The position numbers and the translations under genes are program-made. Shown here piece by piece: positions 607 through 24,905 of a stretch of DNA of 25,522 bases. The notes beneath the pieces are model-generated. The model searched no databases. It was not told the origin of the DNA and saw only the letters and a program-made list of their open reading frames with translations. The stretch's first letter is position 1. The number at the start of each line of letters is the position of its first letter. Origin of the DNA: Paraspadella gotoi (taxonomy: Eukaryota; Animalia; Chaetognatha); the NCBI GenBank assembly GCA_051294375.1, contig CM119268.1, positions 19,447,943 to 19,473,464 of the forward strand, read 5' to 3'.

Positions 607-820
607 TATTACTGAATTAGAAAAATGTAATAGAGAGACATTTTTAAATTCAACTTGTATCCTTGAAAAGAAACGTTTTTTAACTTTAACCCTGAATTAT
701 TTTCTAACTGGAACATGTTTATCAAAATGTCTCTCTATTACATTTTTACAAAATGTTTTTAAGATTGCTAAATCAAATTTTTAATTTTTTGGTGGACTAA
801 CCCACTAACCGTTCATCAGG

Positions 821-890
821 CGCCATTGGTGCGGAAGGCAAGTCATTCGCCTCCCCAGCCCAAAGGTCCGGGGTTCTAGCCCGGTGGTCG
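821..890 (+). pseudogene. tRNA-derived (Gly-like) Pol III promoter head
   Basis: A-box-like tggtgcggaagg (827-838); ttcgcctccc resembles the tRNA-Gly(CCC) anticodon arm; T-arm/B-box ccggg-gttctag-cccgg (868-884); acceptor-like pairing ccat/gtgg. The anticodon stem is broken, so this is not a functional tRNA. Confidence 0.7.
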
Positions 891-893
891 TCT

Positions 894-967
894 GTCAGTT
901 AAGAGGGACGGGCGCTTAACCCGCCTGTAATATGGTGTACAGCCTGATCCGAAGCTCAGGGACTGGC
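894..967 (+). ncRNA. Putative twister self-cleaving ribozyme, type P5 permutation
   Basis: P5 gtcagtt(894-900)/gactggc(961-967); AA; P2 gagg(903-906)/ccc(920-922); conserved GA(907-908); T1 pseudoknot cggg(909-912) with tccg(948-951); UAA cleavage motif (917-919); T2 gc(923-924) with gc(954-955); P3 ctgta/tacag; P4 cctga/tcagg closing loop TCCGAAGC, which matches the twister UCCnAAGC consensus. P1 is reduced to a 4-nt linker. Confidence 0.75.
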
Positions 968-1044
968 TTATATTGAACGGTTCTATCAAAACTCATAACA
1001 ATAATTACTGTCTCTTCAATTTAATATTATTGCAGTCGTTTAGG

Positions 1045-1717: not shown

Positions 1718-2791
1718 TTTAGGCTGCAACTCTTCAAATTCAGTGTAGATTCATTGTAGCTCGAATTTCTTTACCATCTTTTTAATTGAAGATTTTGTTC
1801 ATGACTGGAAAACCAACAGAGTAATTGTTTAATTCTCCCCTTCTAAACTAACCCATACCGCGTTTTAACTTCTTACCTAGAATTTTTTAACAACCAGATT
1901 GAAAAACAAATCTTTAAAAAATGAGCTTACCCATTTAACTTAACAATTTTGTTATTTACCCATTTTTAAAAAATGATTAAAAACAGAATGTTTACATATA
2001 AATAAAAACTTATTTTTTGTGATTACTGATGATTATAATGATTACGTATTGTTATTCTGAATGACCTTTCCTCTTAAAATGATTTATTTTTTTAAGAAAA
2101 TTAGTTTTTTTATATAATTTAATAATGGAAAATCGTAATAAAATATAGCGTCAGTCAGCGTAATGACCAAGGTCGTTATTCGACCGTGAATTCATAAAAT
2201 TATCGATTTATATAATTAACGTTAATAACTTTTATTTTTCATGTTTTTCTCGTTTGCCTTTTTGTTTTAACGAGGTTTTCCGCCGGTAGTCGACGTACCT
2301 CCTGTCACGCGCGTAGAATCAGGCTGCGTGCGACACGATGGCTCAACGTTTATGCAACCACTTGACGCGTGACAAGCTCCGCCTTTTTTCGGAGTACGCT
2401 TAACAAGAAAAACAAATTTGGAGTATTTATTCAGGAATACATGGTGACAATATTCCCAGCCAACCTTTAAAAACTTAAAAATTCTCCTTACGTTTAAATC
2501 GGGAACATCAAAAAAAAGCTTTTAAATAGGATGCGGTTTTTTTATACAGAGAGTGATCTGTACATATGATTTTAACTCAGATGAGGTGGTAATACATTAA
2601 TTATTCTAAAAAAACAGCCGCCTTACGTAATATTTAGCGGGTATTTTTGATGAAGCGGCATAGCGTAAACCTTTCTTGACGCAAATAACTTGTATATGGC
2701 ACATTATCCGTGAATATAATACCAAGAGTTGGTTGAACATGAAATAGAATCTGATTCTATGGTGGACTAAAATCGACGAGCCGTTCATCAG

Positions 2792-2861
2792 TGGCCATTG
2801 GTGCCGGAGGCAAGTCATTCGCCTCCCAGCCCAAAGGTCCGGGGTTTTAGCCCGGTGGTCG
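2792..2861 (+). pseudogene. tRNA-derived (Gly-like) Pol III head, copy 2
   Basis: Acceptor-like tggccat/gtggtcg; A-box-like tggtgccggagg; ttcgcctccca (Gly CCC-like); B box mutated to ggttttagcc. Confidence 0.65.
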
Positions 2862-2865
2862 CCTA

Positions 2866-2939
2866 GCAGTTAAGAGGGAAGTGGCGCTTAACCCGCCTGT
2901 AACACGGTGTTACAACCTGATCCGAAGCTCAGGTTCTGT
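2866..2939 (+). ncRNA. Twister-like ribozyme, copy 2, probably degenerate
   Basis: Retains gagg-GA, TAA-ccc-GC, P3 tgtaaca/tgttaca and P4 cctga-TCCGAAGC-tcagg. The T1 strand reads agtgg (2880-2884) instead of cggg, and P5 is only gcag/ctgt. Confidence 0.55.
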
Positions 2940-3038
2940 CACTAACACATAACTGGTAACAATAATTGCCGTCTCTTCACTGATTCGAAATTTTTTGGCG
3001 CAAACCTTTTCTTTTCCGTTCAGTTTCCCATTATTCAT

Positions 3039-5645: not shown

Positions 5646-5681
<36 letters not shown>

Positions 5682-5886
5682 AAAGAATTGAAAGAAAGAA
5701 AGAAAGAAGGAAAAAATAAATAAACAAAGAAAGAAAGGAAGAAAAAAATATAGAAAGAAAGAAAAGAATTGAAAGGAAGAAATGAAGAAAGAAAGAAAGA
5801 AAGCAAGAAAGAAAGAAAAAAAAGAAAGAAACAAAGAAAGACAGAAAGAAAGAAAGAAATAAAGAAAGATAAGAAAGAAAAAAAGT

Positions 5887-5934
<48 letters not shown>

Positions 5935-5939
5935 AAAAA

Positions 5940-6014
<75 letters not shown>

Positions 6015-6015
6015 A
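5410..6015. repeat. (GAAA)n / (TAAA)n compound low-complexity tract
   Basis: Direct reading; it accounts for the long F/L/S-rich spurious ORFs. Confidence 0.95.
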
Positions 6016-6473
6016 GAGAAAAAAAAGGAGGAAAGAAAGAACAGATGGACAGACAACAAGATAGAGAGAAAAAGAATAGAAGGAATGTCGCAAAATTGGT
6101 AATTCCTTTGGTATATATATATAATATATATATATTGGTAATTCCTTTCCACATTAAGACGCCAACGAAGATGAATATGACGACGACGTCGACGACGACA
6201 ACGAGAGCAACGACGACGACAACGACGACGACGGCGACGACAATCTACTCAGTCCCTTTTCCTACCTCACCGAAAGTCTATTTTCGCCTCCCAGCAGAGA
6301 AGGTAATGACTGAATATTCCCGTTCATAACTTCTTTTTTTCTCTTTCTCTATTACATAAGTTATATGAAGAGAATTGAACTATTTATATGAAGATTTTGC
6401 TCTCTTAATGGCCTCGTTTTTAAGGACGGAGTCTGAGGAAGTTCGTCCCCGGGAGATTTTCGTCTTAGACTTG

Positions 6474-6520
<47 letters not shown>

Positions 6521-7126
6521 CTTTTTTACGTCGTTCTGTTAAATTCGTAATTTTTTGTCACGATTATTTTGAATTATTATTGTTACGTTGTTCCACTCCT
6601 ACTCTTTTTAGACTACTCCGTGCATCTTTATCCCGCATTCCAGCCTGCACCCACGGCCCCGTTTATAGAATTATCGTCGATTTTAGACTTCAGTCGTCAT
6701 GTACTCGTACATAGAAAGAAGACTATTATTTTCTCTCTCTCTTTCTCTCTCTCAGGTCTCTTTTTCAAATTGGTCCACTCAAAAAAAAAGAGAGATAGTA
6801 GAAATCAATAAAATAGAAATTAGAAAGAATTAAAGAATGAAAAGAGAAAGAAATAAAGAAAAAAAGAAAGAAAAACGAAAGAAAGAGAATAAAAAAGATA
6901 GAAAAGGAAAGAAAAAGAAAAGAAAAGAAAGAAAAAAGAAATCCTGCATATTATTTCCTTCTCACCCAGTTTCGAATCCATTTTGGTCCTCGTTTCAGAC
7001 AAGGGGCCCTCAGCCTCAGCTGGACGGAGACTGGGATGTAGGGGGGAGGGAGCGGACGGGGCGGAGGGGGGATTGGTTAGACTAGGTGGTGGTCCGAGGT
7101 CATTGAGAATGGAGTTAGCGATGGGA

Positions 7127-7192
7127 GGCCGTTAGAGATGCGAGGTGGTTAGAGATGGGAAGGGTGTTAGAGATGGGAAGGGTGTTAGAGAT
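7127..7192. repeat. Short 18-bp tandem repeat gttagagatgggaagggt, ~4 units
   Basis: gttagagat recurs at 7130, 7147, 7166 and 7184; also present in duplication copy B. Confidence 0.8.
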
Positions 7193-7349
7193 AGGTGACG
7201 AGCTATAGGAAATGAAATGGGGTCAACAAGACTTTTTTTTGTTGTTTGAGATAGTCACGGGTCTTTGCGACGATGTCGCTGTCCTAAAACGCTAAAGTTC
7301 TAATTGTTTTTTTTTTTTTTGTTTTGTTTTTTTTTTTCCCGGCCTTTAA

Positions 7350-8168
7350 GAGGAAAGGTCATTCAGCATAACAATACGTAATCATTGATGTATTAGAGCT
7401 AATACATCGAGAAATACATCGTAATCACCAGTAATCACCAAAAAAAAGTTTTTATTTATATGTCAACATTGTGTTTTAAAATATTTTTTTTGAAATCGGT
7501 AAATAAGAAAATTGTTAAGTTAAATGGGTAAGCACATTTTTTAAAGATTTGTTTTTCAATCTGTTTGTTAAAAAATTCTAGGTAAGAAGTTAAAACACGG
7601 TATGGGTTAGTTTAGAAGGGGAGAATTAAACAATTAATCTCGTTACTCTGTTGGTTTTCCAGTCATGAACAAAATCTTCAGTTAAATAGATGGTAAGAAA
7701 TTCGAGCTACAATGAATCTACACTGAATTTGAAGAGTTGCAGCCTAGACGACTGCAATAATATTGAATTAAAAATTTGATTAGCAATCTTAAAAACATTT
7801 GTTAAAATGTAATAGAGAGACATTTTGATAAGCGCGTTCCAGTTAGAAAGAATTCAGGGTTAAAGTTTAAAAACGTTTAATTTTCAAGGATACAAGTTAA
7901 AATTTAAAAATGTCTCTCTCTATTACATTTTTCTAATTCAGTAATAAAAAATTCATAAAAAATATCAGATGGATTGGCCTTTTCGTTTGACCTGCAACTC
8001 TTCAGATAGGTTTCTTTTATTTTAATATTATAATTAAAACCGATATAAAATGGGGTAGAATGCATCAAATGTTTAAAGTGAATACATTTTCGGATCGCCA
8101 GGAGCTCTGCTTTCTGAATTTGTACTCCATTTTTGGCATTTTGAAGTTGAACTGAATGACCCTTTTTC
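7350..8168 (+). mobile_element. Non-autonomous TIR DNA transposon with TTAA target duplication (Kolobok/T2-like)
   Basis: TTAA (7346-7349) gaggaaaggtcattcag ... ctgaatgaccctttttc TTAA (8169-8172); TIRs match 14/17; purine-purine start rather than the piggyBac CC start. Confidence 0.75.
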
Positions 8169-8291
8169 TTAAAAACTTTACTTTTACCCTTTGTGTCTTC
8201 ATCCATTTTTACGCATTTCCCGATTTCTTCTTTTCTTATTTTTATCCAATTTCGCTCTTTCCATTTCATTCCATTTTCTTGAGTTGCGGGG

Positions 8292-8362
8292 TAATTACAA
8301 GCTAAGCCGCTTGTAATTTACTTCTCGGTCGGTCGTTCGGTTTGTCCGTCGGAACAATATTA
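8292..8362 (+). mobile_element. Possible 5' end of another HINE/DINE-1-like element
   Basis: Hairpin aattacaagc-taagcc-gcttgtaatt followed by a ggtcggtcgttcgg..gtccgtc microsatellite-like stretch. No matching 3' end found. Repeated at ~14574-14634. Confidence 0.4.
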
Positions 8363-9209
8363 TAACTTCCGTTCTTCAGATTAGTTACCGCTAGCTATAG
8401 TTGATCTACTTTGCCCTGTTTCTATTTATCTTTTTATTCATTTTCCCCTCTTTCTTCTTATTTTATTGCATCTCTTTGATTCATTCAGACACTCCCTTAG
8501 TTTAGCGTTGTTTTTCTGGGGGTTTTTTTTGTTGGTTTTTTTTCATTGAATTTTTCTTCTTCCTTTTTTGTTTCTTTTTTTCCACCTAGTTATTTCCATT
8601 TTTCCTTCCAGTTTTTTTTTCGATTTTACCTCCTACTTTTTTTTCAACGGTTTTTTCATCTTTCCCTCCTCTGTCGTTTTTCCTTTCATTCTTTCCATTT
8701 TTCTTTCCATTTTCCCTCGTTTTTCTTGCCCGGTTTCGTCTTTTACTCTCGCTTTTCCAGCTTTTTAGTCTCCGTTTCCATTCAGACTTTTTGACGTTTC
8801 GTGAAAAACGGGTGACGTCTTTATGATCGAGTAATTCCCTCAAATAAGATTATTTTCCCACCTCTGACTGTCTGTCCCTCTCTCTCTCTCTCTCTGGTAG
8901 GAAAGTGTGTGATGAGCTGGATATAAAGTCTTGATGGAATTGTGCGAGTGGAAATGAGTTAAAATGGAAAAAAACAAAAGTCATATTTACTTGAAGTATT
9001 TTTAACTTAAATTTACTCATAATTATATGTTTATAAAAATTGGATAGATAAATCGAAATTGAATTTTGTGTGTGGGTAGGAAATAAGTGATAAAGCTGGG
9101 ATATTAATTTTTTGATTGGATCGTAGGAGTGGAAAAGAGTTCAAATTAGAAAAAACCAAAAGACACATTTATTTGAAATTTTTTAAAGTTTCTCTCTCTC
9201 TACTCTCTC

Positions 9210-9276
<67 letters not shown>
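9210..9276. repeat. (GATT)n microsatellite
   Basis: Direct reading. Confidence 0.95.
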
Positions 9277-9277
<1 letters not shown>

Positions 9278-9278
9278 A

Positions 9279-9630
9279 TTGACCAAATTATGCCAATTAA
9301 CAAAAATATGCCAGTTGACCAAATTCTTAAAGTTGACCAAATTATGCCAGTTGACCAAATTCTGCAAGTTGATCAAGTTCTGCAAGTTGACCAAATTATG
9401 CCTGTTGACCAAAATTATGCCAGTTGACCAAATTCGGACAGTTGATAAAATTTATGCTAGTTGACCAAATTATGCCGGTTGACCAAATTATCTTAATTGA
9501 TCAAATTATGTCAGTTGACCAAATTATGTCAGTTGACCAAATTATGTCAGTAGACCAAATTATGTCAGTTAACCAAATTATGTCAGTTGATCAATTTATG
9601 CAAGTTGATTAGATTATGCAAGTTGACCAA
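9279..9630. repeat. 18-bp minisatellite gttgaccaaattatgYca, ~19 units
   Basis: Head-to-tail units with no unique spacers. Confidence 0.92.
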
Positions 9631-10991
9631 GTTAGCTTATTACCACTTAATTATCGATTGACCTGGAATTTTGTATGTGAGTAGAAAAGTGTGTGATTGA
9701 ACAGGAAACCAAGTTTCGATCGGAATCGTTTGAGGTGGAATATGAGTTAAATGGAAAAAAACAAAAAAACCTGTTTCACAAATTGAGGTTATGCATTCTT
9801 TTTCCTTATTATATTAAATGTATATGCAGTGATGTATTATAAATCTTAAATATATATAATCAGTTAATTAATCAATTAGTCCAATTAATAACAATAATTA
9901 ATTAATCAAGTCAATCAATCCGTCCATCCGTCCTACCTTAGCAAAAGCTCCAACTAAACTCGTTACCGATATGGCTTGGAGGGTAGAAGTGGAGAAAGTG
10001 TGCGATAAAGCTGGATTATAAAGTTTCGATGGAACAGTCAATGGAGTAGGAAATGAGTTAAATGAAAAAAACATAAGTACATTACTAAAATATTTTTACT
10101 TATTTTAACCAATAAATACTCTAATTAATATAATTGGATGATAGATTGAGTTCAATTTTTGTGTGGTAGGAAAGTGATGTGATAACAGCTTGAAATAAAG
10201 TTTTGTGGAATTACGAGTGGAAATGAGCTTTAATGAAAAAATATGAGTCACATTTACTGAATCTTTTTGAATTAGGTTCATTGGTTGTTGCACTGAAGCT
10301 TTTAAATATTTTTTAATATATAACAAATGACAAAAAAAAAATTTAAAAATGTGATTTTTTTAAGAACGGGTTCTGTAGAGCTTAAAAGTTAAATGAAAGT
10401 TAGTACTATCATTTTTTTTTTCAAATTTTTACAATAATGGTTAAAATAGAAAAAACCTTAAAAAATCATCATCATCATCATTATTGGCGAATTTTATTTT
10501 TTTAAATTTTTTTATTAATAAACAAATTTTTTAAAAAGTTATTAATACCTTTATCTAACTTTTAAAGCCTTATCAGAATCTATAAAAAAATTGATAAGCA
10601 AAATTTTAAAAACTTTTAGTTTTCAACCTGTTCCGGCCTAATATATAGTAAGGCGGCCAAAATTGAACACTTTTATAACTTCTAGTTCTCTTTAAAAATT
10701 CTTTCCTTTTACTACTAAATCGATTTTTAATGTAACTTTTTGAATTAGTTCATTGGGTTGTTGCAACTGAAGCTTTTAAATATTTATTAATATATAATAA
10801 TTATATAAAGTTTTGACGGAATTGTGCCAGTGGAAATGAGTTTTAGATGGAAAAAACTTGAATCTTTAAATATTAATGATTACTAATAAATGGTTTTAAT
10901 TAATTAATTAATTAATTAATTAATGTTGAAAAAATGATGCAAGTTAAAAAAATCTAAAAGCATAAAGATCGGTCGCAATTGTATAAAAAAT

Positions 10992-11883: not shown

Positions 11884-11915
<32 letters not shown>

Positions 11916-12176
11916 AAAGAAATTGAAAGAAAGAAAGAAAGAAAGGAAAAAATAAATAAACAAAGAAAGAAAGGAAGAAAAAATATAGAAAGAAAGAAAA
12001 GAATTGAAAGGAAGAAATGAAGAAAGAAAGAAAGAAAGCAAGAAAGAAGAAAAAAGAAAGAAACAAGAAGACAGAAAGAAAGAAAGAAATAAAGAAAGAT
12101 AAGAAAGAAAAAAAGTAAGAAGAAAGAAAAGAAAGAAGAAGAAAGAAAGAAGAAGAAGAAAGAAAAATAAATAAAA

Positions 12177-12247
<71 letters not shown>

Positions 12248-12708
12248 AGAGAAAAAAAAGGAGGAAAGAAAGAACAGATTGGACAGACAACAAGATAGAG
12301 AGAAAAAGAATAGAAGGAATGTCGCAAAAATTGGTAATTCCTTTGTTATATATATATAATATATATATATTGGTAATTCCTTTCCACATTAAGACGCCCA
12401 ACGAAGATGAATATGACGACGACGTCGACGACGACAACGAGAGCAACGACGACGACAACGACGACGACGGCGACGACAATCTACTCAGTCCCTTTTCCTA
12501 CCTCACCGAAAGTCTATTTTCGCCTCCCAGCAGAGAAGGTAATGACTGAATATTCCCGTTCATAACTTCTTTTTTTCTCTTTCTCTATTACATAAGTTAT
12601 ATGAAGAGAATTGAACTATTTATATGAAGATTTTGCTCTCTTAATGGCCTCGTTTTTAAGGACGGAGTCTGAGGAAGTTCGTCCCGGGAGATTTTCGTCT
12701 TAGACTTG

Positions 12709-12753
<45 letters not shown>

Positions 12754-12763
12754 CTCTCTCTCA

Positions 12764-12794
<31 letters not shown>

Positions 12795-15177
12795 CTACGT
12801 CGTTCTGTTAAATTCGTAATTTTTTGTCACGATTATTTTGAATTATTATTGTTACGCCTTGTTCCACTCCTACTCTTTTTAGACTACTCCGTGCATCTTT
12901 ATCCGCATTCCAGCCTGCACCCACGGCCCCGTTTATAGAATTATCGTCGATTTTAGACTTCAGTCGTCATGTACTCGTACATAGAAAGAAGACTATTATT
13001 TTCTCTCTCTCTTTCTCTCTCTCAGGTCTCTTTTTTCAAATTGGTCCACTCAAAAAAAAAGAGAGATAGTAGAAATCAATAAAATAGAAATTAGAAAGAA
13101 TTAAAGAATGAAAAGAGAAAGAAATAAAGAAAAAAAAGAAAGAAAAACGAAAGAAAGAGAATAAAAAAGATAGAAAAGGAAAGAAAAGAAAAGAAAAGAA
13201 AGAAAAAAAAATCCTGCATATATTTCCTTCTCACCCAGTTTCGAATCCATTTTGGTCCTCGTTTCAGACAAGGGGCCCTCAGCTCAGCTGGACGGAGACT
13301 GGGATGTAGGGGGGAGGGAGCGGACGGGGCGGAGGGGGGATTGGTTAGACTAGGTGGTGGTCCGAGGTCATTGAGAATGGAAGTTAGCGATGGAGGCCGT
13401 TAGAGATGCGAGGTGGTTAGAGATGGGAAGGGTGTTAGAGATGGGAAGGGTGTTAGAGATAGGTGACGAGCTATAAGGAAATGAAATGGGGTCAACAAGA
13501 CTTTTTTTTTGTTGTTTGAGATAGTCCACGGGTCTTTGCGACGATGTCGCTGTCCTAAAACGCTAAGTTTCTAATTGTTTTTTTTTTTTTTTGTTTTGTT
13601 TTTTTTTTCCGCCTTTAAGAGGAAAGGTCATTTCAGCATAACAATACGTAATTCATTGATGTATTAGAGCTAATACATCGAGAAATACATCGTAATCACC
13701 AGTAATCAGCCAAAAAAAAGTTTTTATTTATATGTCAACATTGTGTTTTTAAATATTTTTTTTGAAATCGGTAAATAAGAAAATTGTTAAGTTAAATGGG
13801 TAAGCACATTTTTAAGATTTGTTTTTCAATCTGTTTGTTAAAAAATTCCTAGGTAAGAAGTTAAAACACGGTATGGGTTTAGTTTAGAAGGGGAGAATTA
13901 AACAATTAATCTGCGTTACTCTGTTTGTTTTCCAGTCATGAACAAAAATCTTCAGTTAAATGATGGTAAAGAAATTCGAGCTACAATGAATCTACACTGA
14001 ATTTGAAGAGTTGCAGCCTAGGACGCTGCAATAATATTGAATTAAAAATTTGATTAGCAATCTTAAAAACATTTGTTAAAATGTAATAGAGAGACATTTT
14101 GATAAGGCGTTCCAGTTAGGAAAGAATTCAGGGTTAAAGTTTAAAAACGTTTCATTTCAAGGATAACAAGTTAAAATTTTAAAAATGTCTCTCTATTACA
14201 TTTTTCTAATTCAGTAATAAAAAATTCATCAAAAAATATCAGATGGATTGGCCTTTTCGTTTGACCTGCAAACTCTTGCAGATAGGTTTTCTTTTATTTT
14301 ATATTATAATTAAAACCGATATAAAATGGGGTAGATATGCATCAAATGTTTAAAGTGAATACATTTTCGGATCGCCAGGAGCTCTGCTTTCTGAATTTGT
14401 ACTCCTTTTGGGCCTATTTTTGAAGTTGAACTGAATGACCCTTTTCTTAAAAACTTTTACTTTTAACCCTTTGTGTCTCAATCCTATTTTTACGCATTTC
14501 CCGATTTCTTCTTTTCTTATTTTATCCAATTTCGCCGGTTTCCATTTCATGTCCCATTTTCTTGAGTTGCGGGTAATTACAAGCTAAGCCGCTTGTAATT
14601 TCTTCTCCGGGTCGGTCGTTCGGTTTGTCCGTCGGAAACAATATTATAACTTCCGTTTCTTCAGATTAGTTACCGCTAGCTATGTTTTGATCTACTTTGC
14701 CCTGTTTCTATTATCTTTTTTATTCATTTTCCCTCTTTCTTCTTATTTTATTGCATCTCTTGATTCATTCAGACACTCCCTTAGTTTAGCGTTGTTTTTT
14801 TCTGGGGTTTTTTTTTGTTGGTTTTTTTTCATTGAATTTTTCTTCTTCCTTTTTTGTTTCTTTTTTTCGCACCCACTAGTTATTTCGGGCATTTTTCCTT
14901 CCAGTTTTTTTTCGATTTTTACCTCCTACTTTTTTTTACAACGGTTTTTTCATCTTTCCCTCCTCTGTCGTTTTTCCTTTCATTCTTTACCATTTTTCTT
15001 TCCATTTTCCCTCGTTTTTCTTGCCCGGTTTTGTCTTTTACTCTCGCTTTTTCCCAGCTTTTTAGTCTCCGTTTTCCAATTCAGACTTTTGACGTTTCGT
15101 GAAAAACGGGTGACGTCTTTATGATCGAGTAATTCCACTCAAATAATGATTATTTTTCCGCACCTCTGACTGGTCTG

Positions 15178-15200
<23 letters not shown>
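11884..15200 (+). repeat. ~3.2-kb direct duplication, copy B
   Basis: Colinear with 5645-8895; the differences are mostly 1-nt indels. Confidence 0.92.
13619..14446 (+). mobile_element. TTAA-flanked TIR element, duplicate of 7350-8168
   Basis: TTAA (13615-13618) gaggaaaggtcatttcag ... ctgaatgacccttttc TTAA (14447-14450). Confidence 0.75.
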
Positions 15201-16946: not shown

Positions 16947-18715
16947 TTTTTAGTCGGATCTGCTTATCAGCAGATCCCGACTCTATAATTCACTTTGTCG
17001 GTCCGTCGGTCCGCCCCCTCAATATTGTCGGGCACTAAATTATATCATGTCAGAACATCAAATTATGATAAATGGATGGATGGATGGATTTGAATAAAAT
17101 TTTGTGTGTGGGTAGGGAAGTGTGTGATTGAGCTGGATATGAAGTCTCGATGGAATCGTCCGAGTGGAAATGAGTTTAAATGGAAAAAACAAAAAAATAT
17201 ATTTCACTATTTGAACACCAATTGCTCTTGAGTGGATGGGGCGCTTGACCTGGAATTTTGTATGTGGGTAGGAAAGTGTGTGATTGAACATAAAATCAAG
17301 TTTCGATGGAATCGTTTGAGTGGAAATGAGTTTAAATGGAAAAAAACAAAAAACCTGTTTCACAAATTGATTATGCTTCTTTTTCCTTTTATATTAAATG
17401 TATATGCAGGATGTATTATTAAATTAAATAATTAATCAGTTAATTAATTAATTAGTCAATTAATTAATCAATAATTAATTAATCAGTCAATCAATCCATC
17501 CATCCATCCTACCTTAGCCAAAAGCTCCAATAACTCGTGATTACCTGGTTGGATTGGAGGGTAGGAAAGTGTGGGTAGGAAAGTGTGCGATAAAGCTGGA
17601 TATAAAGTTTCGATGGAATCGTGTGAGTGGAAATGAGTTTAAATGGAAAAAACATAAGTCACATTTACTAAAATCTTTTTACTTATTTTAACCAATAAAT
17701 ATTCTAACTAATCATAATTGGATGGATAGATTGAGTACAAATTTTGTGTGTGGGTAGGAAAGTGTGTGATAAAGCTTGATATAAAGTTTTGTTACGAGTG
17801 GAAATGAGTTTAAATGAAAAAAATATGAGTCACATTTACTTGAATCTTTTTACTTATTTTAACCCATAAAAGATTAAGATGAAATTTTGTGAGCGGGAAG
17901 GAAAGTGTGTGAAGAAGCTAGATATAAAGTTTTGACGGAATTGTGCCAGTGGAAATGAGTTTAAATGGAAAAAAACATAAGTCACATTTACTTGAATCTT
18001 TATTATTTATGATTACTAATAAATGTTTTAATTAATTAATTAATTAATTAATTAATTAATTAATTAATTAATTAATTAATGTAAAAAAATGATGCAATTT
18101 AAAAAAATTATGCAAGTTGAAAAAATGATACAAGGTGAAAAAATCTTAATCTTAATCGTCGCAATTGGAGAGAGAGAGAGAGAGAGAGAGATAAAAACGA
18201 AATAAAACCATGATGTTGCGATAGCAAAATGATAACATGCACAAATGTGATGCTCAATTTTACGAGTTCAATCCTAATTAAATTTTTTTTTAATAAAAAC
18301 GCAGAGAGAGAGAGAGAGAGAGAGGCAGCAGCAGAGGCAGCCAGAAAAAAATAAAGAAATCAAAAGGCAGCAGTAGAAGCAGCAGGAGAAAAGAGAGAAA
18401 AAGAAAAAGCCCCTGCAGAGCCAGCTGCAGACTCGTTTTTTTTCCCGATGAATCAGCACTAAAAATGATCATAAAAATGGCACAAGTTGAAAAAATGATG
18501 CGAATTGTAAAAATGATGCGAATTGAAAAAATGATGTGAATTGAAAAAATGATGCGAGTGAAAAAAATGATGCGAGTTGAAAAAATGATGCGAGTTAAAA
18601 AAAAATTTGAAAAAATTGTAATTTATCATCTGATTAGTTGATTACCTACTATTTTCGTCTTCTACAACCACTTAATTATTGTAGGCAGATCCGACATTAT
18701 TTGCTCAAACTTGTT
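16947..18715 (+). mobile_element. Apparently complete Helentron-associated non-autonomous element (HINE/DINE-1-like)
   Basis: T run; 5' subTIR agtcggatctgc (16952-16963) hairpinned with gcagatcccgact (16970-16982); gtcggtccgtcggtcc microsatellite; central 140-180-bp tandem units (17090-18005); 18-bp repeats (18486-18600); 3' subTIR gcagatccgac (18685-18695); terminal cttgtt in a T-rich site. Confidence 0.75.

Positions 18716-19872: not shown

Positions 19873-19949
<77 letters not shown>
19873..19949. repeat. (GATA)n microsatellite
   Basis: Direct reading. Confidence 0.95.
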
Positions 19950-20242
19950 TTAAATTAGATGACTTCCTAACAAGAATGATGTCTAATATCTAAGTAGAAA
20001 ACTAGGGCAGAAAGTAACTTTTTTAGTGTTGTATATATTCTCCCTCTATTTCCAGAAGAGAACATCCCTCATTATAATAAAGTATACATTATATAAGGAA
20101 TATAATTAAATCTAATACATGGTGAAATATATTAAACTTTTACATTCATTATTAAATTTAATCCAATTTAGTTTTCTATATTGATTGAAAGCTTACAGGG
20201 ACGTGAAATGTCATTATCTTGTAAGAGTGATGAAGGTCTTAA

Positions 20243-22053
20243 GGTCCGTGATTTCTCATTTCAAATTATAATTAGGCTAAAACCGAGCTCGGATTTTGAA
20301 AAGAGAGGTCCGAAAATGTATTCACTTTACTATTTTTTCAAAGGCGTCATCGTTTTTTCGATTTTTTTTGTACAATATAAAATAAAAGAAACATATTTGA
20401 AGAGTTGCAGCCCAAACGGTAACGCGGATTCTCATAAAATTTGGCATGAATTACCTTTAGGTCACAAACTCCAATTCTATGAAAAGATACTTTCAAAATT
20501 TGCCTTCCTTAATAGAAAATTTTATTATTTTAGTCAATTTTTGGGATTAATTCCTTGATATCTTTGAAACGAAAAACATTTTTTCAAAAACGCGCTCATA
20601 GAATCTCCCCCACCTTTCCTTTCTTGGCCAAGATATTTTTTTCTTCAAGAAGAGTCCAACGGTTTGAGCTGCAACTCTTTGTTTTTAACTTCACTTCGTC
20701 AAGAAAGTTAAATTCTGTACTCATTACTTTTGCAAGATTCACCACAACATTCACAAGCACGGGATGTGATGATTGAGTTTGTTCAACGCCAATGTATTAA
20801 AAAAATGGCTTACTGTTTTAGATTCAGATTTATTTTTTTTTCAGAGATTCCTTAGAAAATAGGGCAACTATTCCTTAAGGCCAGGGATCACTCAACCTAA
20901 AATTGTAGAAATCTTAATTTACTGTATCTTTGATGAGCGGGGTTTTCCGTCTCTTTTCCAACATCTTAATCATTTTCTCACATCTTGTAAGAGGTTTTCT
21001 ATNNNNNNNNNNNNNNNNNNNNNNNNNTAAAAAATAATTGAAAACTTTTCAAAACTACCTAAAATGTTCATAAAATTTAAACAAATTTTTTCTTCGGATA
21101 AAACTAGATTTATTCAAGAGAAAAATATTTTTTAAATGTAAGCTAAATTTCTACAACCAAATTTTTAACGTTAAAACTGGATTCTTTACAGTTAAGCTCA
21201 ATTTCTACTTCTTATCTTTCAATTCTTCCTTGGTACAAGTACATACTTGGAGTTGTATCACTAATAAGTCTAAAACATACTACTCTACACATTTTCCAGA
21301 TGGGTTTTTATGCTTTTATAGACTTTTATGAGTTAAAAAACTTATCAAATTATTTCAATATTGACTTTATGTAAATGTTTTATCATAAAATAGTTGCCCT
21401 ATTTCTAAGTAATCTCTGAAAAAAAATCAAATCTGATTAAAAAAATTAAGCCATTTTTTAAGACATCGGTGATTGAAACAAACTCCATCATCACAACCCG
21501 TGCTTGTGTATGTGTGGTGAATCTTGTGCTAAAGTAATGAGTACAGAATTTAACTTTCTTGACGAGACGCTGAAGTTAAAAACGAAGAGTCTGCATGCCA
21601 AACCACAGGACTCTTCTTTAAGAATAAAGTATGCTTGGGACAAGAACAGGAAAAGGGCGTGATCTTCATGGAGCGCGTTTTGGAAAAAATTGTTTTTTCG
21701 TTTCAAAGATATCGAAGAAATTTATCCCAAAATTGATAAATAACTCAAATTTTCATTGCAAGAAAAGCAAATTCTATGAAAGTATCTTTTCTTTAGAAAT
21801 TGAGGTTCGGTGATGAAAAGTAATCCATGCCCAAATATTAGATGGAAAACCGCTTACACGTTTGGGCTGCCACTCTTTAAATAGAGTTTCTTTTATTTTA
21901 TATAGAGCCAAAAAAGAAATCGAAAAACGGATGACGCCTTTGAAAAAGAATATAGAATACATTTGGAAATCGTCAGGAGCTTATCCTTCAAAAAATCCGA
22001 AGCTCGTTTTTAAGCCTAATTATAATTTGAATTGGAGCGTGGATCCCTGGACC
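20243..22053. mobile_element. Long-TIR non-autonomous element (~630-bp inverted arms) with TTAA-type ends
   Basis: 20243-20872 is the imperfect reverse complement of 21389-22053. Ends are TTAA-ggtcc ... ggacc-ttag (TTAA in the copy ending at 24652). Shares gagttgcagcc and aaagtgaatacatttt motifs with 7350-8168. Spans the N gap at 21003-21027. Confidence 0.65.
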
Positions 22054-23688
22054 TTAGCCTGGTGATCATTCAACAAGAATTGCATTAAAAGCTTTATACA
22101 AAATTATTTTTATGTAAAAGAAGTTATATTTCCTTCGTGTTTCAAAATAAAAAAAATTCAAATTTGAATAAGGTTTAGCTTCAAGAGCCAACCAAAAATC
22201 GGGCAATTTTTATCGTGAAACCGTAAAAAAACATTCATTCAAGACGGTAAAGTCTATTTTTTAAAAAGCGAATTTAATTCTTTTTATTCAATTAACATCA
22301 GCTACCCAGTGTAATACTAGTACCGTAAAGCCTAGTCCATTTCTTATGATGTAATGGATTCAAGTTAAGGAGTAAAAATTAACGTTTAGTGCTAGAGAGA
22401 AGTGCAGAATACAGGTATATTTAATGATGCCTGAATACCATTTTTTACATAAGAGTTAATACAAAAAATTTGTACAATTTTAAAGAGTCAAAGGACAATC
22501 GGACTCCATTGGCATCTGCCGCAATGCGGATCCTCTGAAGATTAGAAACACTAGTGGTGCCAGTAATGGTCTCTGATTCCACAGTAATGGACAATCAGTT
22601 TATGCTTCTCGCTCTTGTCACATTAGTTTCTAGTTGCCCCTGACATTCAAAACTGGCTATAAAGCTTGACCGTTTGCCACAGATGAAAATAAGGTAAACC
22701 CCTTGCAGCATTCCTCCATTTGTTCACCCATCTGTTTTGTTGTCACAGCATTTTTTTAAATTTTAAAAAAAAATTTTAAAAAATTTGATAACCACTTCAG
22801 AGAACTACTAATATACAAAAAAAACATATATCACCACCTATATATATCTCCAGATTTTACTAATATCTATGTCGAAAAAATAAAGAGGTTCTCTGCTCGA
22901 CTTTCAGTTCTTTAAAATCTACAGGAAAAAAAAAAAATAAAAAAAATAATATCACACAAAAAGAGTTGGAGCGAAAAACTGAGCTTGCACAAAAAATAAA
23001 CTAAAATTATTTTCGTAGTATGGACAATGTGGAGAAAATTCTATGAGGAGGGATTTGAAAATGTTATCGTTTTCAAGATATTTTAGCCATTTTAACCGCA
23101 CAAAATTATTCATATTCTTTTTTTTTTTCCTATGAAGAAAAATGGAATTTGGAAAATCCCTCTCATAGAATTGGGACCTTCCACCTCAAGTAAAATTATG
23201 TTAAATTTCATCAAAATCCGCTTTCGGCCGTTTGGCTGCAACTCTTCCGATTGAGGTTTCTTTTTATTTTATATTAGTAATAAAATTCGGAAAAAAAAAA
23301 CACCAACGGTTTGAAAAAATTAATAAAGTGGCATACATTTCGGGAATCGACTGGACCTCTACTTTCAAAATCAAGCTTTGTGTTACCTATTTATAACTTT
23401 TGGTGCAGTAGCATCCCAGGCCCTTAAACCAACAAAGGCCTGTCCGAATCAGGGACAGATAACTTATTTAATAAATTAGAAAGGATAGGTTTTTATTATT
23501 GTTGTACCAATTTCATAGGTAAACAGTAATCTTCAAGTTTGTTCATAGAGATGGATGTGAATGCATCAATCTTCGTATGGCAGAGATTTGGGTTGAGGGC
23601 GATAGAAACAAAAGCCATAAAGTTTATAGTGGCTGCGAAAGAGCTAAAGGCGCATAAGAACAGCGAATAGAGAGAGTTGTAAAGACGG

Positions 23689-23723
<35 letters not shown>

Positions 23724-24905
23724 TTAAATTAGATGACTTCCTAACAAGAATGATGTCTAATATCTAAGTAGAAAACTAGGGCAGAAAGTAACTTTTTTAG
23801 TGTTGTATATATTCTCCCTCTATTTCCAGAAGAGAACATCCCTCATTATAATAAAGTATACATTATATAAGGAATATAATTAAATCTAATACATGGTGAA
23901 ATATATTAAACTTTTACATTCATTATTAAATTTAATCCAATTTAGTTTTCTATATTGATTGAAAGCTTACAGGGACGTGAAATGTCATTATCTTGTAAGA
24001 GTGATGAAGGTCTTAAGGTCCGTGATTTCTCATTTCAAATTATAATTAGNNNNNNNNNNAATTAAAAAAATTAAGCCATTTTTTTAAGACATCGGTGTTG
24101 AACAAACTCCATCATCACAACCCGTGCTTGTGTATGTTGTGGTGAATCTTGCTAAAGTAATGAGTACAGAATTTAACTTTCTTGACGAAGTGAAGTTAAA
24201 AACGAAGAGTTGCATGCCAAACCACAGGACTCTTCTTTAAGAAAAAAATATCTTGGACAAGAAAGGAAAGATGGGGGAGATTCTATGAGCGCGTTTTTGG
24301 AAAAAATGTTTTTCGTTTCAAAGATATCAAGAAATTTATCCCAAAAATTGATTAAAATAATCAAATTTTCTATGAAGGAAGGCAAATTTTGAAAGTATCT
24401 TTTCTTAGAATTGGAGTTCGTGATCTAAAAGTAATCCATGCCAAATTTAATGAGAAACCGCCTTACCGTTTGGGCTGCAACTCTTTAAATAGGTTTCTTT
24501 TATTTTATATAGTACCAAAAAAAATCGAAAAACGATGACGCCTTTGAAAAAATAGTAAAGTGAATACATTTTTGGAATCGTCAGGAGCTTTCCTTTCAAA
24601 ATCCGAGCTCGTTTTTAGCCTAATTATAATTTGAATTGAGTGATCCTGGACCTTAAACCAACAAAGCCTGTCCGAAGTCAGGGACAAGATAACTTATTTA
24701 ATAAATGAAAGGATAGTTTTTATATTGGTTGTACCAATTTCATAGTAAAACAAGTAATCTTGCAATTTTTCATAAATGGATTGAATGCATCAATCTCGTA
24801 TGCAGAATTTGGTTGAGGCGATAGAAAAAAGCCATAAAGTTTTAGTGGCTGGAAAGAGTGAAAGGCGCATAAGAACAGCGAATTAAGTGAATTGTAAAAC
24901 GGTGT
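23689..24905 (+). repeat. Local re-duplication around the 10-N gap (24050-24059)
   Basis: 23689-24049 appears identical to ~19915-20275; 24060-24652 matches ~21437-22053; 24653-24903 matches ~23424-23689. Confidence 0.85.

Follow-up and report, generated by a model that had tools for sequence, protein, structure and literature searches.

Can a retroposon with a tRNA-like head carry, just behind that head, a ribozyme whose cut would strip the head away, and still be copied whole? The question is raised by two related repeats in a 25,522-nucleotide (nt) stretch of the genome of the chaetognath Paraspadella gotoi (GCA_051294375.1, contig CM119268.1, positions 19,447,943 to 19,473,464 of the forward strand; this whole stretch is called the window below), which is AT-rich and microsatellite-rich and contains 47 long open reading frames, none of them convincing as a protein gene. 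As we describe below, sequence comparisons indicate that the body of these repeats is a real twister-derived motif, arranged in the P5 order, within a high-copy retroposon that resembles a short interspersed element (SINE). The reading that we favour, with a probability of roughly 0.5, is that the element is a SINE carrying an attenuated P5-order twister. Coordinates of its parts are collected in Table 1.

Table 1. Parts of the two retroposon copies, in positions of the window
Feature	Position	Strand	Remarks
Retroposon copy 1 (231 nt)	788-1018	+	leader, tRNA-like head, twister-like body, tail without poly(A)
Left target-site duplication (TSD) of copy 1	784-787		ATTT, again at 1019-1022; supported by two empty sites of the host repeat
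Leader of copy 1, 33 nt	788-820	+	within the TSDs, ahead of the tRNA-like head; the copies agree in 27 of 36 columns
tRNA-like head of copy 1, degenerate	821-890	+	A-box-like 827-837, B-box-like 872-881; Gly(CCC) identity weak
Twister-like motif of copy 1, type-P5 order	894-967	+	19.2 bits, E 0.00057 (12-phage-twister model); descriptor match
3' tail of copy 1	968-1018	+	sharp end, without poly(A) or microsatellite
Left TSD of copy 2	2751-2757		7 bp, again at 2980-2986
Retroposon copy 2 (222 nt)	2758-2979	+	T1 strand changed (2880-2882), P5 3' strand deleted, TTTT in B box (2845)

Two copies of one retroposon

The segments at 788-1018 and 2758-2979 are two copies of one high-copy retroposon. 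They align with 81% identity over 239 columns (E 9e-58); the second copy is thus found where an earlier note on this DNA had placed it, about 2 kb from the first, and self-comparison of the window revealed no third copy of the element. Contigs matching positions 700-1100 numbered 4046, 3344, 931 and 296 in four sequencing runs of one organism, counts that take in repeats flanking the element, with a depth that peaks over the element itself. All nine runs that cover the stretch consist of assembled contigs, and summed contig depth is not read here as copy number. The element is short, non-coding and dispersed in many copies, as SINEs are. Of the Pol III-driven, self-cleaving mobile RNA family proposed in the earlier note, what is borne out is an element that is mobile, high in copy number and flanked by TSDs, with a tRNA-like 5' part and a twister-derived body in P5 order; transcription by RNA polymerase III (Pol III) and self-cleavage would be predictions.

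We observed that TSD length varies in the two copies (4 and 7 bp, 2/2), and this difference in length points to target-primed reverse transcription as the probable route of insertion. A 7-nt match such as that of copy 2 arose at 14 of 20,000 random junction pairs, and at 206 of 20,000 when 3 nt of slack were allowed on each side. Copy 1 is inserted into another repeat; empty sites of that repeat are seen on the minus strand at ~7743-7790 and ~14026-14064 and differ at one base of the site. At the 3' end the depth in run X1 fell about 100-fold after position 1021, from 667,954 (bin 1008-1021) to 6,913 (1022-1035), and beyond 1018 there were 37 contigs in run X1 and 39 in run X3 that continued into unrelated flanks (agreement 0.4). 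The tail would presumably serve as recognition site for the mobilising enzyme. A DNA transposon was considered and rejected on inspection, terminal inverted repeats being absent and TSD length variable.

The repeat that hosts copy 1 occupies 580-786, 1019-1044 and 1720-2078, and lies uninterrupted on the minus strand at ~7345-7951 and ~13693-14244. It seems to carry a second insertion, of ~675 bp (~1045-1720), the start of which has high contig depth.

The twister-like body and its departures from type P5

From 5' to 3', the body of copy 1 consists of P5, P2b, GA, the T1 strand, a 5-nt linker in the place of P1, UAA, P2a, the T2 dinucleotide GC, P3, P4 with its loop, and P5 again. P5 (894-900/961-967) has 7 pairs, 3 of which are G-U; GA is at 907-908 and UAA at 917-919, with the predicted cut at U917^A918. 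The T1 strand, 909-912, pairs with 948-951 (C-G, G-C, G-C, G-U), and T2, 923-924, with 954-955; P3 is formed by 925-929/938-942 and P4, of 5 bp in both copies, by 943-947/956-960, closing on the loop UCCGAAGC at 948-955. Each landmark that had previously been read in copy 1 lies in its place and pairs as claimed; what had been overlooked were the imperfect P2, the absent P1, the damage to T1 and P5 in copy 2, and the 33-nt leader. The conserved bases of L1 and L4 (GA, UAA, UCC-N-AAGC) stand in P5 order both in copy 1 and in the majority sequence of the family, the majorities being taken per site and unphased. Both T1 and T2 are complementary in copy 1, and T1 is broken in copy 2. Part by part, the body matches the Rfam Twister-P5 consensus and Table 1 of PMC8501958 (papers are cited by PubMed Central number).

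We rejected an alternative register in which GAGGG (903-907) supplies the T1 strand, since it leaves no P2 or P1, and a 6-bp rival helix, 898-903/915-920, whose probability in single-copy folds was at most 0.02. There was also no need for a permutation of the non-circular kind, of which PMC10085705 reports no good twister candidates.

It could be argued that the twister likeness arose by chance in an ordinary SINE body, and we consider this highly improbable. A descriptor of the P5 order had its sole match in the window at 907-955, in copy 1, and none in 100,000 dinucleotide shuffles of the element or in 300 of the window. Applied to 143 phage loci that twister-type patterns had picked out, it recovered 119. 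Because the descriptor was written with the element in view, the independent test is a model built solely from P3-bearing P5 twisters of phage, 12 in all, the E-values of which are rough. This model ranked copy 1 first in the window (score in Table 1) and copy 2 second (12.6 bits, E 0.033), the next match having an E of 2.

Chance would be favoured by the outcome with the Rfam twister models, a search that formed one part of the refutation proposed in the earlier note: they gave no match to the element, even at E up to 10. However, this miss can be explained by the make-up of the Rfam Twister-P5 model, which has 58 positions and an 8-bp P1 and lacks P3. Rfam called Twister-P5 in 16 of 20 and in 13 of 20 phage loci fetched as natural P5 twisters, and a GACGG/UCCG pseudoknot (CGG/CCG T1) was present in 5 of the 10 tested phage loci so called. 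P2 strands of 3 nt are likewise natural, with 57 distinct phage matches, 51 of them fully paired. Also on the side of chance, the minimum-energy fold of 894-967 is different from the nested twister fold (-23.8, with z -0.98, vs -15.9 kcal/mol, pseudoknots being left out of the count), and covariation was not seen. The check for covariation across copies, which had been proposed earlier, covered two phased copies and unphased contigs: none of 16 predicted pairs examined showed a compensatory change, and G951A, which reached 8% of depth in run X1 and 14% in run X3, had no listed partner change at 909.

No relatives emerged from the searches made for them. A 16-mer gave 7 viral matches, none of which extended. 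A twister pattern gave 3 viral and 27 metagenome matches without similarity to the element; Rfam made no call in any of the 3 viral loci, or in 20 of the 27 metagenome loci tested. Matches in prokaryote genomes, 84 in number, extended at most 33 nt, and 5 further viral pattern matches did not look like twisters (Rfam called 0 of 2 tested). Two pattern matches, L024 and L037, lie in apparent coding sequence, in a stretch that resembles what we take to be ribosomal protein L4, and were treated as chance. The phage contigs L072-L180 commonly carry type-P5 twisters in which P2 has 3 bp or the pseudoknot is CGG/CCG, and L113 has five of them within 1.6 kb.

We do not count the motif as a canonical type-P5 member, and for it to act as a twister, both the loss of P1 and the flaw in P2 would have to be tolerated. 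P1 is absent, its place being taken by the 5-nt linker with one G-U pair at most; a form with an extra G behind 909, accounting for 32, 36, 68 and 73% of depth in four runs, lengthens the linker to 6 nt. By comparison, phage linkers measured 14-25 nt in 82 of 82 distinct cases, though the patterns permitted 2-25. P2 has two Watson-Crick (G-C) pairs and an A904.C922 mismatch or bulged A, a flaw that we regard as the state of the family because no change of at least 3% is listed at 904 or 922. Under a folding model that ignores pseudoknots, the predicted P2 pairing was 0.0 in both copies; the median over 51 phage examples was 0.67, with 6 of these also below 0.05. P3 is shortened in copy 1 and is longer and well formed (0.93) in copy 2 and in loose-end sequences. 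The per-site majorities suggest that P5 is kept at 7 bp in the family, position 894 being either A or G. Copy 2, in which AGU replaces CGG in T1, the 3' strand of P5 is lost and TTTT stands in the B box, is very likely dead, to judge from these three lesions.

Head, leader and the fate of the ribozyme

No other part is as well conserved between the two copies as the head (65 of 70 columns identical), and it likely derives from a tRNA. Its A- and B-box-like words are degenerate, and one contig carries a better B box. Neither ARAGORN at default settings nor the Rfam tRNA model called a tRNA on either head; relaxed ARAGORN called tRNA-Gly(CCC) in both copies, with scores of 84 and 82, at which 33 and 52 of 1000 shuffles yielded a tRNA call too. 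The tRNA(Gly) head proposed in the earlier note is weaker than stated there, and its glycine identity is weak.

The head does not form the 5' end of the element, as it would in a tRNA-derived SINE: in both copies a leader of 33-35 nt precedes it. An internal Pol III promoter should not transcribe sequence that lies upstream of it, and for this reason the leader is the main unexplained part of the element. In run X5, 12 contigs extend before 802 and bear the copy-2 form of the leader start, and 6 of 32 listed long pieces start at 802-808. The leader of copy 2 contains an AT-rich word (2766-2773) ~20 nt before the head and a TCAGT word (2788-2792) just before it, which may resemble the 5' flank of a natural tRNA gene.

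In the attenuated-twister SINE that we favour, the head, likely tRNA-derived, would drive Pol III transcription, the twister, lacking P1 and one P2 pair, would likely cut slowly or not at all, and whole transcripts would be copied back by the reverse transcriptase of a partner, primed at the target. The twister may have been captured from a retrotransposon end; if a twister head of type P1 were doubled head to tail, the P5 order would result, with an unpaired junction at the P1 position. We favour attenuation because a fast cut at U917^A918 would strip off the promoter, yet the copies are whole, no starts are listed at the cut and the joints listed are skips. Specifically, no pile of starts at 918 is listed in the contigs, and depth does not rise on the 3' side of 918; all 15 joints listed, out of 26, are skips and none goes back; and there are no headless or tandem copies among the contig features listed, both window copies being monomers. 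An active ribozyme behind a SINE head is described as leading to 5' truncation (PMC5786205, section 23), and cleavage by a P1-less twister as inefficient (PMC8501958). Our judgement is that detectable cleavage in vitro by the majority form falls somewhat short of an even chance.

Several points weigh against an attenuated twister behind a Pol III head. The TSDs enclose the leader in both copies, although Pol III, working from an internal promoter, should not transcribe this part, and support for the tRNA head is weak, the relaxed ARAGORN call being one that 3-5% of shuffles also receive. The tail has neither poly(A) nor a repeat, and no mobilising partner was found. The core of copy 1 (GA, UAA, both GC, loop 4) is intact, with G951A as the only listed change of at least 3%; this invariance is no sign of selection, for the head varies about as little. 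The folding model ignores pseudoknots. P1, although part of the twister consensus, is described as dispensable in vitro, a P1-less mini-twister cutting at almost the wild-type rate (PMC5408937). Finally, contigs show starts unreliably, and 417 loose ends fall outside those listed.

An active twister would explain a leader inside the TSDs. In a cycle of cutting, circularisation and reverse transcription like that of Schistosoma SINEs or retrozymes, Pol III would read through rare tandem masters, two U^A cuts would free a unit RNA in the order tail-leader-head, closure would be the work of a host ligase, and one round of reverse transcription from the tail end would insert leader, head, twister and tail. 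The core bases are intact, as such a cycle would have them, and read-through is possible because copy 1 has no internal TTTT. A precedent is offered by the Pol III hammerhead SINEs found in Schistosoma, which depend on copies in tandem (PMC6765202, section 11); retrozyme circles measure 170-400 nt, and RtcB has been described as closing them (PMC7229834). However, the copies in the window are monomers, no listed joint goes back, and the loose ends that follow 1018 consist of mixed flanks (agreement 0.4); P1 and P2 are defective, and an exact stop after one round is an extra assumption. We hold the active cycle to be unlikely, and regard as equally doubtful the idea that a P1-less, P5-permuted twister returns an upstream promoter leader at each cycle, the ribozyme doing the job of a long terminal repeat.

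The retained leader, the tail without poly(A) or repeat, the variable TSD length and the weak tRNA support would also fit a non-autonomous derivative of a long interspersed element (LINE) or Penelope-like element, transcribed whole by outside promoters, in which leader and tail are the ends of the partner, and the tRNA-like piece and the twister are passengers. Words like a hammerhead core at both ends of copy 1, on the minus strand, add to its case, but they lack GAAA and stem III and Rfam calls none of them. A likeness between leader and tail was not significant (209 and 1229 of 3000 shuffles), neither copy is a partial tandem or inverted, so that structural support is wanting, and the supposed passenger head is the best-kept part between copies. 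Such a derivative appears rather unlikely to us. The minus-strand words are CUGAUGA and UGAAGA, at 813-819 and 1012-1017, and are possibly relics of Penelope-type ends; as minus-strand hammerheads in their own right they were rejected, with no GAAA and no stem I or III.

Comparison with known systems, and other repeats in the window

With the type-P5 twister (RF02684; PMC5408937) the element shares the order of parts, the GA-N-GG strand, UAA, GC, the 8-nt P4 loop and the pseudoknots, and the optional P3 and P5 are present in the element too. It differs from that class in its want of P1 (a 5-6 nt linker instead), its imperfect P2 and the absence of an Rfam match, and it is a eukaryotic repeat, whereas the type-P5 examples compared come from phage contigs. 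The T-variant twisters of Perere-3, an RTE element of Schistosoma mansoni, are likewise twisters in a retroposon with TSDs (PMC8501958), and by eye the P3 arms and P4/P5 junction described here resemble the S. mansoni twisters of Table 1 in that paper, opened at P5. Perere-3 twisters are of type P1 and open an autonomous LINE, at whose extreme 5' end they stand, the TSD adjoining the cut site (PMC8501958). In contrast, the motif of our element is permuted, internal, and situated behind a tRNA-like head.

The SINE-like hammerhead repeats of Schistosoma are those that we take to bear the name Sm-alpha. They too are short and non-autonomous and combine a promoter of the Pol III type with a self-cleaving motif (PMC6765202), but theirs is a hammerhead for which cleavage has been shown, in repeats that are often tandem, whereas ours is a twister-like motif, in monomers with TSDs. 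Metazoan retrozymes without long terminal repeats (PMC7229834, PMC7761336) share the size range, the lack of coding capacity and the presence of a ribozyme motif; they form circular RNA from tandem hammerhead repeats, and neither tandem copies nor circles of our element were seen. tRNA SINEs whose bodies come from LINE 5' untranslated regions (RTE, Vingi; PMC5786205) similarly combine a tRNA head with a body probably taken from a retrotransposon end. SINEs are described there as often lacking the ribozyme-bearing 5' end (Kojima 2018, PMC5786205), unlike our element, in which the ribozyme core is complete and for which no donor LINE came to light. The word 'twister' has no occurrence in that paper, and no match to loop 4 stands in a twister context in its supplement.

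Twisters in retroposons have been described as type P1 at the 5' ends of RTE LINEs (PMC8501958, PMC7761336). More broadly, the literature shows twisters at RTE 5' ends, and hammerhead or hepatitis delta virus-like ribozymes in SINEs; a tRNA-headed twister element was not found in the searchable literature, which takes in few subscription papers. The SINE itself may be catalogued in Dfam, Repbase or SINEBase with no ribozyme noted, and eukaryotic examples of type P5 may already figure in the supplements of Roth et al. 2014 and of the paper that first described the Schistosoma SINE. If the twister is attenuated, the family, with its two defined lesions, tests whether a SINE can retain its promoter only by inactivating a ribozyme that it has captured (a matter raised by PMC5786205); if it is active, the element would be a natural P1-less twister and would point to a circular route that could explain the leader. 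The element also suggests a way in which doubling of a P1-type head might produce the P5 permutation.

Other repeats are found elsewhere in the window. A direct duplication of 3.3 kb, with 95% identity, joins 5650-8895 to 11884-15198, and a 361-bp stretch is duplicated with 100% identity at 19915-20275 and 23689-24049, adjoining nested inverted repeats at 20239-24903. Minisatellites of 18 bp lie at 9224-9684 and 18454-18621, and are associated with a dispersed tandem repeat family that is also present at 32-335, 8861-9185 and 17058-18080.
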